The translations under genes and the position numbers were made by a program. From Moniliella sp. 'wahieum' (Eukaryota): a stretch of 64,000 nt of DNA. Below, in pieces: positions 12,261 through 46,672 of this stretch. Every line of letters starts with the position of its first letter. Within the stretch, counting starts at the first letter, position 1. The notes below the pieces were generated by a model. The model saw nothing but the letters and a program-made list of their open reading frames with translations, was not told the DNA's origin and did not search any database. Where the stretch lies: the NCBI GenBank assembly GCA_003971905.1, contig RSEE01000076.1, positions 124,001-188,000 of the forward strand, written 5' to 3'.

Positions 12261-14191
12261 ATGTCGCCCTTATCTTCTGCCTCTGCGCATTCTGCGCACC
12301 CGGTTTCCTCGCCTGATGACATTGTGGAAGCGTATGTTCGTCGTGGCGAGTTTAACCCCAACTCTCAAGACGGGATGGCTCCTGGCAAGACAGCGAAATG
12401 GCCGGCTTTTCGCATCAAGCACACGATTGGTGCTTGGTCTGGACTGAACACCATCCTGTGGGACGTTGACGTGGATGTCGCTGCCGATTTCATACAGGAC
12501 GTCATTCCTACCATTCGCCGCTGGGGTATCCCGGGGAAGGGCATAGCCTCCCCGGCCCCTGGTTCTGCAGTGGCCGACAAGGACTCTATTGTGGCTGATA
12601 TCATTACCGACTACAATAAGGGCCATGGTGGCGAAAACTTCTTGCTCACACCGACCGACTTCTATGTTGCCTACGTCTTTTATACCAAGTCTCATCGCTT
12701 CTCCACCTTTGAGGACTTGCAGAAGGCAATCTTTCGCCATCTCAAGGCAGTGCGTAATGCTTGGAAACTGTACGAGGACAATAAGGCTTCCAAACATCGT
12801 GTTGCTCAGAAGCGTCGTGCCATGCGCGACATGCTCCTCGACCCAGAGGACCCAGCTCCAACTACCGAATCTGACGATGAACTTCAGCTTCTGACCGCTC
12901 GAGTCAGTACTGAGTCAGTGCACCGTATCGACCTGTTGGGCACCCCGAAAGGTTCTGTTCCGACTGACAGTGGTATGGCTTTTGCTCATGACCCGTCGGC
13001 TGCTTTGCCGTCGGTGACCGTCCCTTCTGTGGAGCGTATCAGCGAGCGGGCCCCGTCTGCTCGCACGGTGACTATCGAGGAGCACCAAGTGGGTGGATGC
13101 ACGCGTCTAGTCCAGGGACACATGAATTTCGATGTTATGACATTGGCGAAGCGTATGACGCGTGCTTTTGCTTCCTCGCCTCTGACACCTCTGGTGCATG
13201 GTCCCGAGCAAAATGACCCGTTGGCTGTTCTTCGCTGGCTGCAGGGCCTCCGTACTCGTTTGGCCATCATTTATCACGACTTTGCTTCGATCTTGGCCGG
13301 AACAATGAGGTGCCGCCGGGGGTGCACTCTCAGATCGTTGCGCAACTGATGACGCTGGTGTCGCCTGCCCTCGCGTCCTACATTTCGCGCCTCGCGACCA
13401 CAACGTCTCCCGGGATTCTTGACTCGGTTCCGGACTTCTTGTCGTGCTTGTTCGCGGAAGTACGTCTTTCTACGCCCAGCGTCTCTGAACTACAGCTGTC
13501 GGTGCACCAGACGGAATGGGATCCCAATGCAGAACCGGCTTCTAAGGCCCTGACGCGCTGGCTCGATTCCATCCAACTTCTGACCCTCTTGGGGTACTCC
13601 ACCTGGGACCCTGCACGTGTGATGTCCAGTTTGGAAGCCCTTTTCCGGCGTGGTGATTCGTATCGGCCGCTGATTTTCGCGGGGCTACCTCCCGGACAGC
13701 GTGTGACCGTGGCACACGTCAATTCTGTCTTGGGGGACTTGCAGTCGTTGGCCCGGGCCAACTTCGTCATGGAATCTAACCGGATTGCGTCCATCTCGGT
13801 ACCTACGGTTGAATCTTTGGCTGTTGATGTCTCTACCCCTCCCGTTAATTCGGGGACCACGGGACTGCTTGGGAACGCAGACATGTCTATGGCAGCGCAG
13901 CTACGAGCGATGGGGGTTGCGGCTGTCTGCTGGAATTGCCGCCAGCCTGGACATATCGCTGCCAACTGCCCGGCGCCGCGTCAGGACAACCGCATTTCTA
14001 CCCGTGGTACGTCAGGATGGAATCGCACCCTCCCTGGGGCAGGACGGAACACGAATACCCACCGTGCGCCCCCACAGCAGCATGCTGTTGCGCGTGTGCT
14101 TCAAGCCTTGGCGCACGGCTTAACGGTAATGGACCTCTCCGTCTCAGAGGAGGATGGGCAGCCTGCCGCGGGGTTTGATGATATCGAATAG
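12261..14191 (+). CDS. Gag of Copia A (one frameshift near 13310-13349), ending in TAG
   Basis: The ATG lies within the PBS; CCHC zinc knuckle CWNCRQPGHIAANC near 13928-13970; TAG at 14189-14191. Confidence 0.8.
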
Positions 14192-14193
14192 GG

Positions 14194-17100
14194 GTGCGCG
14201 GGGGTGAGGCGCTCATTATCCTCGCAGAGGACTTGTTGAGCGCATTGTTTATCACTCGCCCAGGACGCGCGCCCCTTCTTTCCCCCCCTTCTTCTTCTAA
14301 CAACATCCCATCTCCACCTTGCTCCACACCTCGCTCGGCTGAATTTATCTTTGACAGCGGAGCCTCCCATCGCCTTGTCAATGATGCAAGCTTGGCGAAA
14401 AACTTCGTGCCTCCCTCCCGTCCCACCTCGGTAGTCACTGCAGGGGGGCAGAAACTGCCGGTCGCTGGGGTGAATGGCACCTTACGCCTCCTACAATATG
14501 ATCCATTGTCGGCCTCGCTACTACCACAGAATGTGAGCACTGAACGTCGTATTGACTAAGAAGCTTCTGCGACTGACTCGTCCAGAAGACTGGTGCGAGC
14601 TCGGAAGGAATGAAAGCTGACTCACGTGACTCAGGGTCCGCGCGGTCCTAGGACGGATGTCAACACCCCCGCTGACCGGAGGGCCCAGTCATGTGGACTG
14701 GATCCATCTCCTCGACGCGGAGTTGAGCAAGATGGCTTGTCAGGGCGGGACGGCCGAGAGGCTTGGTGAGGACGTCCGCTGGGTTCCTTTCGCCGGGGAT
14801 GTGTACAAGTATGGCCTCGCCCGAGTCCACGTGTTGCCGTACATTGTGGTACCGGATCTTCAGCTCTCGGAGCTTGCCGGTGCTGCCAAATTTGTGGGCG
14901 AGATCGACGACAGACTTATTGTCGCAATACCAATGAATGGGTGTACCCTCGCCGATGGCCCCAAGCTCGATCATGATGTTCTTGACATAGTTGGCGTCAA
15001 CCAGTCCATCATATCCTGCCGTATATTCGGCGGCGGCGGTACTGGTAACGCTCTTCGGCTGAAGAATGGATCGCCACGACACCGGCACACCGTACACCAT
15101 CAGTAGGCATCCAGATGTGGAGCGTGCCTGGATGGGATCTCCCGCCAAGTCGGAATCTGTATACAGCGCAATGGCCGGTGCATCTGATGTTGGGGTCAAC
15201 CTCAGGCCCTTTCCTCGAGTATGGTACAGGTAGCGAAGGAAGTCATCGACTGCTTGATGATGCTGCTGCGATGGGTCGGCAGCGGCTCTGCTGAGGGCCG
15301 TGATAGCGAAGAGGGAGTCAGGCCGGCCCATTCGTGCAGCCCACAGTCCCGATCCGATCTTCCCCTGATATGCCTTGCGCAAGGCTGGGAGGGATGGGGG
15401 TTCAGGGTCGGCACGGGGCGGTATCATCCGTACGGGATGTGGGAGAGTCCGGATCCACGGGGCTTTGATGTGGTGCTTTGCCACCACTTCCTCGATGAAC
15501 TTTGGTTGGCTCAGGTACAGCTCCCCACCGATCCGATCGTATTGGCATCCCAGGTGGTAGTGAAGGGGACCGTTACCACGAACATCAATGTGTGTGTTTA
15601 TCTCGGCCATAAACTCCTCGTACTTTTGGTGTGACTTGCATGCGAGGAGCAGATCGTCGGTGTGGACCGCCAGGAGGATCTGCTCACCCGGTGGTGCAGC
15701 GCGCACGAACAAGCAGGGCTCGGTCAAGCTTTGCGTGAAGCCGAGCTTGTCACGCAGCAGGTTCCGGATGTATCGTGCCCAGTTTGCTCCGCTCTGATGT
15801 AGCCCGTATAGACTCTTCTTGAGACGCCACACGCGACCACCCGCTTCGGGGAAGTAGGGGGGTGGGCGGATGTAGACTGCTTCTTCGAGGGGGGCGTTCA
15901 GGTACGCTGCATTGACGTCCGCCGAGAAGAGGCCAAACTTATACTTCTCGGCCAGCACGACGAGGGTCAGGATGGCAGGTGTGCGCACCGATGGTGCGAA
16001 CGTCTGGCCCCAAGTCTCGGCCGATTGTTGGTGTCCGCCCGCGACAAAGCGCGCGCGGTGGCGCAGGAACCGGCCCTCGGCGTCCGTCTTTGTGGTGATG
16101 CGCCATAGTCCTATGAGGATTTGTGCACCCGGTGGTGGGTACGTAGCCTCGTAGGTGCCGTATCGCGCGAGTGTGGCCACCTCGTCGGCCATAGCCTGCT
16201 TGACCATGGCAAAGGAGGGGTGAGTCTCGAGACCCTTGAGCGTCTTGGGAGCGAGGGGTACGCCATCCTTGGTGAGCTGAACCGTGTCCGGGTGGATGGG
16301 TGCGCTGAGAGCAGTCATGGCGGCGTATTCGGGAGGTTGAACTGTGTCGGCAAACGGGGGGGCGGATGTGTCAGGTAGGGGGCGGGCGATGCCGATCTCT
16401 GGTGCGGCGCAGTGGGGCGTGGCGGCTGCAGCACGAGCATGGTAGGTCGTGTCGGTGGGGTCGTCAGCGATTGGGAGTGTGTGCAGGTCGAGGGAGGTGC
16501 GGGTGGTGCGCTGGCGGAGGGGGGGGTAGCGGCGCGGAGGGGGGGTGGTGGTGGGAGCGGGTGTCTGGGGTGTGGCGGCGGTTCGGGGCATGGGTGCTGC
16601 CGCGGCTGGCGGAGTAGGGTTAGCGTCTTTTTCACTGTCGATTTTAATTTGAGGTGATTTGGAGATGTCGGGTGGGAAGTGGTCGGGGTGGAGATGGGGG
16701 TAGATGGCGTTGCCCCATTTGTACGGTTTCGACCAGCGGTAGGTGAAGGTACCCAGGGATGGTTGGTATGTGGCGAAGAGCCATCCCTTTGATCCGCGCT
16801 GATGGTGGTATCCTACCAGCATACCTTCCTCTGCCCGCGCGCTGAGCTTGTGCTCGCGGCGTGACTCGGGCAGATGGAGGTATGCAACGCGGCCAAAGGG
16901 TTGCATCGGTAACGAGTATGCGTGGCCTTTGTATCGCTCAAATCGCGATTTGTTGTCTTCCCCGGATGTTTTGAGTGGCATTTGGTTTTGGGTGAAGCAC
17001 GCAGCGTGGAGGCTGTGTTCCCACCAGTCCGACGTCGGAAGACCTGTACCCAAGAGCAACTGCCTTGCACGAGTCGTTATGGTTCGGATGGCACGCTCAG

Positions 17101-20100
17101 CCACACCGTTGCTAGCACTCTGCCCCGGGATTGTCCGTTCTGACGTGATGCCTTGCTCGTCCAGAAAAGGTTGCAGTGCGCTTGTCAATTCGGGGGCGTT
17201 GTCCGTGCGCAAAGTCCGCAGCAGTCTGTCCGGGCCGTAGCGTTGCTCCCGCAATATGAGGTTCCGCAGTTCCTTCGTTGCAGCGCCCTTTGTCGGGATC
17301 GCTGTGGTGAAGACGTACCGCGTGAAGTCATCAACGGCGACGAGGGCGTATCCGTGCCCCATGCCGGTTACCCGGGGGAGGTCTACTACGTCGACGTGGA
17401 GGACCTCGAAAGGTCTTTTGGATCGGAGGCGGTCCCGGCTCGGATGGGGCGATGCTGTCGCTAGTGCCACCGCGCATGTTGGGCAATCCCACTCTGAACG
17501 ACAGAGGGAGATATGCTTGGCTGTGACGCGGAGGCCTGCGGTTTCCGATCGTGTAAGCCAGGGGAGGAGGTCGATGGCTGCGTGGTTCCAGCGTTTGTGG
17601 GCTTTAGAGACGTGGTCCAGGGCCAGGGATGCTGCGAGGGAGTTTGGGGTTGAGGGTGGGTCGGCCGGTTTGATCGGTTTGGTCGCCATGGCCCGCAGGG
17701 GTGTGGGTGGCGTTCGCGGGTTGTGTAAGATCGTGAATTGATAGTCACTGCCGGTTACTTTTCGTAGGGTGGATCCTGGGTTACCAAGCCAGATACCCTT
17801 CTGGTGTGGGGCGAAGTATGATGCGATTCCGGTGTTCGACAGGTGTGCTACACTGACGAGATTTCGGCTGAAACGGGGCATGTATAGGCTGTTGGGGAGT
17901 TTTATCTCCATTTGGTGTCCTCCTAAGCATCGGATACGGATTGTGGCCGTGCCTCGTCCTTCCGCCTTTACATGTGTCCCGTTAGCAACCTCTATCTCGT
18001 CGTCGCAAGGGGTCATGGATGTGAAGACGGATTTGTCTTTCCAAATGGATGGGAATGCCCCACTGTCATATAATGCCCGGATGATTCGCATTTCGCCCCC
18101 GAGTTCCTAGTAGTCAGCTGTGCCCGCATCAACGTCAATCACTTCAGACTCGGGAGAGCTCGCTCTCTGAGCGACGTGAGCGTTGGCTCGGCCTGGGTTG
18201 CGCGGAGGGACAACAGGTTTATTAGACGTCGCGCTGCGCCAGGGTTGGTTGGTGCGGTCTTGCCCCTTGGTCTTTGTGTCCGCGAGGTTGTCGTCGCCGG
18301 CTTTGCCCCCGCTGGAGTTTTTTCCCCCGCTGGTGGGTCGTCCCCCGCTGTCGGGTCGAGTCCAAGGCGTTCCTCCGTTGACCGGCTTGCCTCCGTTTCT
18401 CTTCCTTTCTCCACCGGGATACGTGGCGGCTGGTATGTCCATCACGGCCTGCCGTAACTTGTCTAGACTCGAGCGCTCTTCACGCTGGCGAATGCTCATG
18501 TCGCGTAAGCCGAGTAGGATCCCAGTGCGTTCCTGCTCTTCCGTAAGTGGGATGCCCGCTCGCGTCAGGCTTGCACTGATCTCTTCCATGTAGTCGAGGT
18601 AGTCTCGACCCGATCGGTTTCCTTGGTCGGCCGAAAAGTAGCGAATGAGAGAGAGGCCCTCTGTTTGCGGTAGGCGTATATCCATACCGCTGACGCAGCA
18701 TGTTCAGCGTGTCCTGGGTGCATGATATTTCGTGGTGGGTGCGGATCGTCCGGAAGAGGGTTGACGGCATGGCTTCCCTAAGAAGGTTGTGCAAGCGTCT
18801 GTCGAGGTCCTCGGTGAAGTAGCGGGAGCTGCGACCATTCTGGACGACGTCGCTTGCGTGGGGGTGGGCATCTGTTATCGCGAAGAGAAATTCGTCTTCC
18901 CAAGCGCTGTAGGCGGACGGGTCTTTGTTCAGATCAGGCCACTTGATATTCTTGGTGGGAGACTCGCGTAGTGATCTGTAAAGGTCGTACTCGGGTCGCG
19001 AGGCTGCGCCTGTAGGTGCCCCCAAAGTTGCGTTGGGTTGAGTTTCCATTTGGTGGATGTTTTGCACCACAAAATTCGTAGCCCGTCGAACCCAGTTTGT
19101 CGTGATAGACGTAGGTTCGTCCTTCCATCCAAGCCACTCGGCTCTGTCGTGTATAGCTCTGTTGATCTTCTCTTTAACGACATCGATGTCGTTCGTCTTC
19201 TTGAACCACAGGTGCGCTTCGGCGCAAAGCATCATGAGTTCCTCGTTGTCGGTGCCAATCGGTGGCGGATCGCGACCGGTTGGTGTCCAGTAATCGCGCT
19301 TGTTCACCATTGTGGTGTCGCTGACCGAGAGATCGGTGTTAGCGTTGGCGCCCATGGTTGTGGGTGTAGTTTTGGCCAGCTCAGGGATGAGCAGATAAGG
19401 ATGTAACTCTGTCGGCCTCGCTACTACCACAGAATGTGAGCACTGAACGTCGTATTGGACTAAGAAGCTTCTGCGACTGACTCGTCCAGAAGACTGGTGC
19501 GAGCTCGGAAGGAATGAAAGCTGACTCACGTGACTCAGGGTCCGCGCGGTCCTAGGACGGATGTCAACATCCATCCCAGCGCAAGTGGGAGGCGCTTCAC
19601 TTCAATGGGGTTATGCTGGTACCTGACCTCATTACTAATCTCCTCAGTACCCAAGGAGTGGCAGCCACGGTGGGAGTACGCTATTTCGGGACCATGAGGT
19701 GGTGTTTTTCACCAAGAATGGCACTTCCCTCGGGGTTCCACTGAAGGGCACCTACCCCAGAGCGGAAATGGTAGTGTGCACGGATGACTGCCAGGTGGAC
19801 GGTGCAGTATTAGCGTTCCCTATTCTATCGGAGACTGAGGATGACTCTTTGAATGATCCTGATGACCAGTTGCGGGACAAACTCTTTCCTCGGCCTGTAG
19901 CTGAGACCCCAGCCCCCGACTTGACGCGCGCGTCAGCTTGGTTGTGGCACCTTCGGCTTGGCCATGCCGGCGCTGAGGCCGTGAAACACACGTCTACGGC
20001 CAGCAAAGGGGGATCTTGGCCGCCTTCGTTTCCTGAGTTTTCTTCCTGCGATGTTTGCCGTACTGCCAAGTCGCGAGCCCCGGCGGGGGAATGATTCTCG

Positions 20101-45588: not shown

Positions 45589-46672
45589 ATGGACGCGCTC
45601 AGTTCGGGCTCCAGCGACTATGTCGCCAACAACTGGATCCTCTGCTACCTCGCCCTCAAGGGCAACGAGTACTTCTGCGAGGTCGACATTGACTACATCC
45701 TCGACCGCTTCAACCTGACTGGTCTCAACGCCGACGTGCAGAACTACCCGCAGGCCCTCGACCTGATCACCGATGCGATGGAGTACGACTACCCCAACAG
45801 TCTCGACCACATCGAAAGCCAAGGCCGGCTTCTGTATGGGCTGGTGCACGCCCGCTACATCCTCACCACCCGTGGTCTGGCCAAGATGGTAGAGAAGTAC
45901 AAGCGCGCCGACTTTGGTCGCTGCCCGCGCGTGCTGTGCTTTGGGCAGCAGCTTTTGCCTGTGGGTTTGTCGGACCACCCGTTCCAGAAGGCGGTCAAGC
46001 TCTACTGCCCACGCTGCGAGGACATTTATTCCCCCAAGTCTTCCCGCCACGGCACGATTGATGGCGCTTTCTTTGGCACCACTTTCCCGCATATGCTTGT
46101 ACGTGGTATCGCACCTGCTGCGTTGCTCTTCCTCCCTCCCTTTCGGTGTTCGCAGAGACTAACCGGATGTGTACACGTGTTTTCCCCTTCAGCTGATGGT
46201 GTACTCGCATCTCATTCCCCCCAAACAACCGGGCGGACCTGCGCCCTTCCTCGTGTCCAACGGCGGTGGTACGGCGGTGTCGGCGGCGGCCGCGACGGCG
46301 GCCGGCAAAGATGGAAGTAGCACCAATGGCAACGGGGACAAGGACAAGGACAAGGAAGCGGATAAGAGCAAAGAGGATGCGACGGGTGATACGGTACCTG
46401 TGCAGGCGTCAACCGCTGCGCTGGTCAAGATTGAGCGGTACAAGCCTCGGATCTTTGGCTTCCCCGTACACGAGACAGCAGTGCTGCAACGCTGGCAGGA
46501 CTCGGCGCGGGACAAGCTGCTGCAGCGGCTCGAGAAGGGCGACCGTGCTTTCGCGGCGGCTGCGGGGCGGGCCGGGGGGCGAAGCAGGAGGAGGGGGGAA
46601 TGCGCCTGCGGGTGCGACGGCACCCCAGTAGAGGAGAGGAATGCACTGGGTTTGGAGAGGGGCGTGTGGTGA
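45589..46672 (+). CDS. CKB1: Casein kinase II regulatory beta subunit; intron 46099-46192
   Basis: [73 protein letters not shown] | LMVY...[10 protein letters not shown]. Confidence 0.95.

Follow-up and report, generated by a model that had tools for sequence, protein, structure and literature searches.

Retroelements need Gag in excess. In Tca2, a Ty1/copia element of Candida albicans with a gag-UGA-pol layout, the mechanism by which the stop is bypassed is left unresolved in the parts of the reports available to us (PMC2194720, PMC7175516, PMC4139406); its 300-nt junction gave no readthrough in S. cerevisiae, according to the portion consulted (PMC2194720), so that a layout of this kind is not in itself proof of mechanism. 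The layout of VdLTRE5, from Verticillium dahliae, is termed very rare in the text consulted (PMC3441728), and the mobility of Tj1 requires its stop, as stated in the sections available (10.1101/2022.12.06.519325, PMC4600332). UAG followed by G constitutes the Type III readthrough context of MuLV, the luteoviruses and the tombusviruses (excerpts of PMC3159437 and PMC8310308), whilst the Sirevirus gag/pol junction is described, in that part of the literature at hand, as an unsolved recoding puzzle. The first-pass annotation of the DNA considered here had named MuLV and Tca2 as known cases; the layout is known more widely, from VdLTRE5, Tj1 and Tosmo, as far as the accessible text of those sources goes.

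The element examined here, element B, occupies 19569-14507 on the minus strand of the window (the whole 64,000-nucleotide stretch of DNA analysed), where it is inserted within another Copia, element A. Reading inwards from its ends, we see a 5-bp target-site duplication, ATGGA (left copy 19570..19574, right copy 14502-14506); a 160-bp 5' LTR bounded by TG...CA (19410..19569) and a 159-bp 3' LTR (14507..14665) that differs from it by the one indel already recorded in the first-pass annotation; a putative primer-binding site, GAGTTACATCC (19399..19409); and a purine-rich tract ahead of the 3' LTR (14666..14673). With the protease-integrase-RT order of its pol, the TG...CA termini, duplication and purine tract identify B as a Ty1/copia retrotransposon, and it is a young one. 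Its gag runs from ATG to TAG (18107..19355), has 415 codons in most copies and gives no Pfam match. In the copy found here, a one-base frameshift near 18651 leaves only the last 198 codons in frame with the TAG; the frameshift is private to this copy, being missing from 26/26 other loci compared. It may have been introduced in assembly, for stray single-base indels turn up in every copy; this scatter points to an error-prone long-read assembly.

At the gag/pol border (18060..18160) the minus strand reads GCT GAC TAC TAG GAA CTC GGG GGC GAA ATG CGA ATC ATC CGG GCA TTA TAT GAC AGT GGG, with the in-frame TAG at 18107..18109 and, immediately 3' of it, GAACTCGGG (18098..18106), the candidate readthrough signal. 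The pol frame (14660..18106) is open for 1148 codons after the TAG, or 1143 counted from an in-frame ATG 15 nt past the stop (18089..18091; codon 6, present in family B only), and has the protease DSG at codon 14 (18059-18067); re-reading thus confirms the letters quoted in the first-pass annotation, the TAG in frame with a 1143-aa pol and the position of the DSG. The frame covers protease, integrase, an SH3-like domain and RT, with RNase H expected at its end; Pfam assigns Pol_BBD to residues 13-93, rve to 230-329, SH3_retrovirus to 401-443 and RVT_2 to 657-881, which is the Copia order.

The stop is inherited. A pattern search of the 69.5 Mb genome, with the stop position left free, found TAG at 57/57 family-B junctions; a private nonsense mutation is therefore rejected, and none of these junctions has the sense codon that the first-pass annotation had named as evidence against recoding. 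At least 26 near-identical full-length B loci were recovered by DNA search (26 scored of 164 candidates), from which it follows that RNA carrying this stop has been copied repeatedly, and 39 of the 40 scored junction matches are identical across 301 nt. A variant of B that is 97% identical (52 differences in 1720 nt) keeps both the TAG and its 3' context, with CTGAC changed to CCGAC.

Searches of the same genome with pol and with the protease family revealed further Copia families, here numbered from F2 to F9. An in-frame TAG-G precedes the protease in eight families in all (B, F9, F3, F2, F4, F5, F7 and A), at a distance of 13-25 codons from the DSG in F2, F3, F4, F5, F7 and F9 and of 55 codons in element A. 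The gag TAG of A, the host of the B insertion, lies at 14189..14191 on the plus strand (TAG-GGG); it is present in 7/7 copies, the link between the frames being directly visible in one of the seven. In F6 and F8, each represented by a single noisy copy, the upstream frame ends TAG-GAT and indels hide the link to pol; these probably add two further families with an in-frame TAG-G. All ten have G immediately after the stop, and the stop is TAG in every stop-bearing family, never the UGA of the Tca2/VdLTRE5 type.

In RT, F2 and F3 are ~70-75% identical to B, F4 and F5 ~55-58%, and F7 and F8 ~33-35%. In trees built from single open stretches only—F6, F9 and L150 being too broken or too short to place—B to F8 form one clade apart from the fused elements of other organisms (FastTree support 0.93 for RT, 0.94 for integrase), with one unrelated metagenomic protein falling within this clade in the integrase tree. 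Element A, placed on integrase only, lies outside it with weak support, and seems to be a separate Copia lineage.

Conservation continues beyond the stop itself. The codons GAA CTC G(G/C)G follow the TAG in B, F9, F3, F2 and F7, GAC (A/G)GC GCG in F4 and F5, and GGG TGC GCG in A; on the 5' side of the stop, no sequence common across families was found. At the 279 residues shared by the pol of B, F2 and F7, the same codon is kept at 41 (2/34 for Leu, 5/13 for Glu), a codon identity low enough to indicate that it is bases, and not residues alone, that are conserved after the stop. The TAG junction is a real, selected feature. As regards the conservation of TAG-G and the downstream bases, which the first-pass annotation had proposed to look for, we find TAG-G in eight families and G(G/C)G in five of them; close homologues in other species were not found in the searches described next.

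A search with the B gag gave no matches among 3920 candidates. With pol (top 8000 candidates scored), we found two relatives, of F2 and F4, followed by fused elements at 22-32% identity, named Ustilago matches standing at ~27%; close relatives of B were added neither by a profile search of 1.84 billion proteins nor by viral contigs. A public gag that is 94% identical to that of F2 ends at the same residue, in a protein record where the stop codon itself is not visible. The junction could be parsed in 45 of 80 metagenome loci, the remaining 35 being set aside; only one of the 45, L169 (a distant Copia at 27% identity, on a separate branch), has a comparable junction, an in-frame TAG-GAACTCGG with a 3' stem of 12-14 bp (L169:87-150, z -2.4). 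L169 consists of one short contig, on which another stop occurs further along, and its TAG could for this reason be decay.

Forms that lack the stop occur naturally. Amongst the F4 junctions 6/9 read TAG and 3/9 TCG; six further loci carry an 81-82 nt deletion across the stop, flanked by short stretches of similar sequence, and AGG is found in two diverged loci. Where they could be aligned, the deletion and TCG forms also lack ~240-270 nt from the beginning of gag, a part in which the AGG forms give a poor alignment, for which reason the stop-less F4 forms may depend on Gag from stop-bearing copies. In a relative of F7 both stop and hairpin are deleted. The F4 and F7 forms show that loss of the stop is possible, and that the frame is preserved when a sense codon takes its place. 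Around ten more protease matches show the same long open frame as the stop-less F4 derivatives, which may therefore outnumber the stop-bearing copies. One unrelated Copia in the genome is fused.

The primer-binding sites follow a pattern of their own: GAG(T/C)TACAA follows the LTR in F2-F5, giving GAG(T/C)TACA(A) overall for B and F2-F5, and GGTT(AT)G is found in F7 and A. By analogy only, the site of B would fit a half-molecule primer from the anticodon arm of tRNA-Tyr(GUA); half-tRNA-iMet priming is the model for such a primer. A host tRNA-Tyr gene matching the site was not found amongst the candidates covered (63 of ~2133 scored, 16 typed). About 40 tRNA-like matches share one common score, and the two that were typed are tRNA-Ala(AGC); this dispersed, multicopy tRNA-Ala is possibly part of a repeat. 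Elsewhere in the window, positions 45590-46500 of the plus strand hold what we take to be a casein kinase II beta-like host gene, with an intron at ~46100-46193 (GTACGT ... GACTAAC ... CAG). This gene and the Ustilago matches at ~27% suggest that the host is a basidiomycete-like fungus.

Turning to RNA structure, the 9-bp stem CTCCCGAGT/ACTCGGGGG, which the first-pass annotation had proposed to enclose the stop (5' arm 18148..18156, partner 18096-18104), can form and sits in the minimum-energy fold of B, but it is matched by ~9% of 300 shuffles (region z +1.36) and is neither significant nor conserved. A stem enclosing the stop is strong only in F3, which has one of its own (0/300 shuffles), and borderline in F6 (3%); the same shuffle test found none in F9, F2, F4, F5, F7, F8, A or L169. 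From the geometry of the ribosome, moreover, the 3' arm of the enclosing stem (+3 to +11) would be inside it when the stop is decoded. A simple scan for H-type pseudoknots found none in B, and so no MuLV-like arrangement of an 8-nt spacer and a compact 3' pseudoknot. Of the first-pass proposal that B makes Gag-Pol by recoding its UAG, the stem as signal is not supported; what does hold is that the stop has been inherited and kept, with UAG recoding the likeliest way to Gag-Pol.

Downstream of the stop, the 3' region of B has a z of +0.54, and its local helix is matched by 17/35 control positions, as compared with 3-12 of 35 in the other families of the genome; a local 3' helix opening at +4 to +9 is found in F3, F4, F5, F6, F7, F9 and L169, those of F4, F5, F6 and F7 being hairpins of 9-10 bp that open at +5 to +9 and stand modestly above controls. 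No position common across families was found as a long-range partner for bases +1 to +14. By eye, a 6-bp CUCGGG/UYCGRG helix can be drawn in B, F9 and F3; it is too weak, and too near the stop, to rely on. In element A, a very stable nested hairpin follows the TAG-G (14189-14280, plus strand; z -5.1). The same stretch is predicted to refold into a candidate MuLV-like pseudoknot, whose first stem has 7 bp and whose second has 7 Watson-Crick pairs, with a loop of 1 nt (2/30 shuffles as good).

Splicing is one rival explanation. Were the AG of the TAG an acceptor, an intron at the 3' end of gag would remove the stop, or splicing from a donor in the LTR would yield, as in foamy viruses, a pol mRNA on which translation begins at the ATG at 18091. 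TAG/G does fit a YAG/G acceptor in all families, and this much of the splicing alternative raised in the first-pass annotation stands; the branch-like CTGAC, 8 nt ahead of the TAG in B and F2, fares less well, since it is CCGAC in the 97%-identical copy that keeps the TAG, and is absent from F3, F4, F5 and F8. The LTRs of B (19524..19529) and F2 each contain a perfect GTGAGT, and such a donor together with the ATG of B could give a pol-only RNA that leaves no genomic copies; the ATG that this form requires is missing from seven families, F2 included. Plant Sirevirus-like loci offer a possible precedent, in that 17 hand-picked from the 45 parsed have a U-rich TAG/G or CAG/G 10-14 codons before the DSG (in two the CAG is followed by A), sites which, judged from their sequence, look like splice acceptors and lie at nearly the same distance from the DSG as the stop of B. 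In those loci, however, the U content is 30-60%, against 10-35% in the 20 nt before the TAG here; F6 is purine-rich at this point, and F7 has CAG directly before its TAG. No strong GT donor, in any phase, was found in the 1245 nt of the B gag, and in-phase donors of the other families are at unrelated distances or missing. In the single host intron that was read, GTACGT and GACTAAC are followed by ~30 nt up to the CAG, the natural stop-less deletions end elsewhere than at TAG/G, and splicing leaves the conserved bases at +2 to +9 unexplained. We regard it as disfavoured, and unlikely to account for the junction.

Nor do we give much credence to Pol being made apart from Gag, whether by reinitiation, internal entry or an internal promoter, with a start at the ATG 15 nt past the stop or at a non-AUG codon. 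The ATG of B is in frame, has a purine at -3 and stands eight codons ahead of the DSG, and a minor junction promoter was found in Tca2, according to the part of the report consulted (PMC2194720). Yet F9, the nearest family, has CTA at the position of the ATG, and no ATG falls between TAG and DSG in F9, F2, F3, F4, F5, F7 or A; with B alone amongst the eight families having one, reinitiation at the downstream ATG, as the first-pass annotation had offered it, is rejected as a general mechanism. Separate initiation needs no shared frame at all, and the frames stay identical across eight families. It would be similarly surprising if B were a non-autonomous family that owes its TAG to a nonsense mutation and its mobility to a helper lacking the stop, or if the host read TAG as sense. 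Stop-less forms do occur in F4 and F7, but amongst B junctions there are none (0/57), and throughout the clade, whose members share 33-75% of RT residues with B, the same stop is kept and pol remains open. No TAG interrupts the three full pol frames (3443 codons, 114 of them Gln), which makes a general reassignment of the code unlikely; an amber-suppressor gene may yet exist, since the tRNA survey, in which neither it nor tRNA-Tyr was found, scored 63 of ~2133 candidates and typed 16.

We put the probability of programmed UAG readthrough in B at roughly 70%, on the strength of the sequence comparisons. Most ribosomes would end translation at the UAG, giving a Gag of 415 residues; in a minority, a near-cognate tRNA would insert an amino acid at the UAG and translation would continue in frame to give Gag-Pol, partial readthrough thereby yielding Gag in excess over Gag-Pol. 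The signal would most likely be the nucleotides that directly follow the UAG (UAG-G, in B GAACUCGGG), assisted in some families by a 3' helix, with no strong structure in B. The common frame, the inheritance of the stop and the conservation of both stop and 3' context are established by the sequences; readthrough, its level, the tRNA and the role of the context as signal are all things that we infer from them.

A broader proposal is offered tentatively, as one that we hold possible but would not bet on: amber readthrough of the retroviral kind may be in independent use in two or more Copia lineages of one fungus, with L169 perhaps a third case elsewhere, UAG-GAACUCG being an undescribed, pseudoknot-free signal in B and element A having converged on a MuLV-like pseudoknot. 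If true, this would make the families a naturally occurring set of UAG-G cassettes, some structured and some not, with stop-less derivatives among them. Readthrough at these junctions, if it holds, would bring Copia retrotransposons into the range of UAG-G readthrough, alongside retroviruses and plant viruses, and add a readthrough context. The comparative evidence for the stop comprises eight to ten families, a base-level 3' context, the presence or absence of 3' structure and natural stop-less forms. For annotation there is a practical consequence: such elements will be split, or miscalled as dead.

How, then, does the junction compare with those already described? Tca2 resembles B in having gag and pol in one frame, a single stop and then a purine-rich stretch; it differs in its UGA, in its predicted pseudoknot and in being one ascomycete family, where here we see a clade. 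VdLTRE5 is, like B, a fungal Copia with 159-bp LTRs, an in-frame stop and no CARYYA (PMC3441728), but its stop is UGA, it has two copies, and the text consulted for it reports no conserved context (PMC3441728). Tj1, Tosmo1-3 and Tcry1 of the fission yeasts form a group of fungal LTR elements, related to one another, in which the stop and 8 nt of context are conserved (10.1101/2022.12.06.519325, PMC4600332); these are Ty3/gypsy elements, not Copia, and have a Type II UGA-CU in place of UAG-G. In the Sireviruses, plant Copia elements, gag mostly ends at a stop of its own in another frame, the junction is U-rich and TAG and CAG interchange, whereas in B gag is open into the TAG, the junction is not U-rich and the element lies outside the Sirevirus clade.

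The context of B, GAACUC, is neither Type I (UAG-CARYYA) nor Type II (UGA-CU). It matches that of Moloney MuLV, which has a UAG followed by G at its gag-protease border, in one frame (PMC3159437, PMC8310308); MuLV needs its 8-nt spacer and compact pseudoknot, according to the portions consulted, and none was found in B by the H-type scan, so that we do not class B as a Type III member despite its matching context, whilst the candidate fold of element A has a similar geometry. In the literature searched, with most subscription papers and supplements falling outside it, a Copia clade with UAG-G did not turn up. Though rare, the layout itself is already in print; what is new here is the amber codon, a context conserved at base level across a clade, and a second lineage with a candidate MuLV-like fold.
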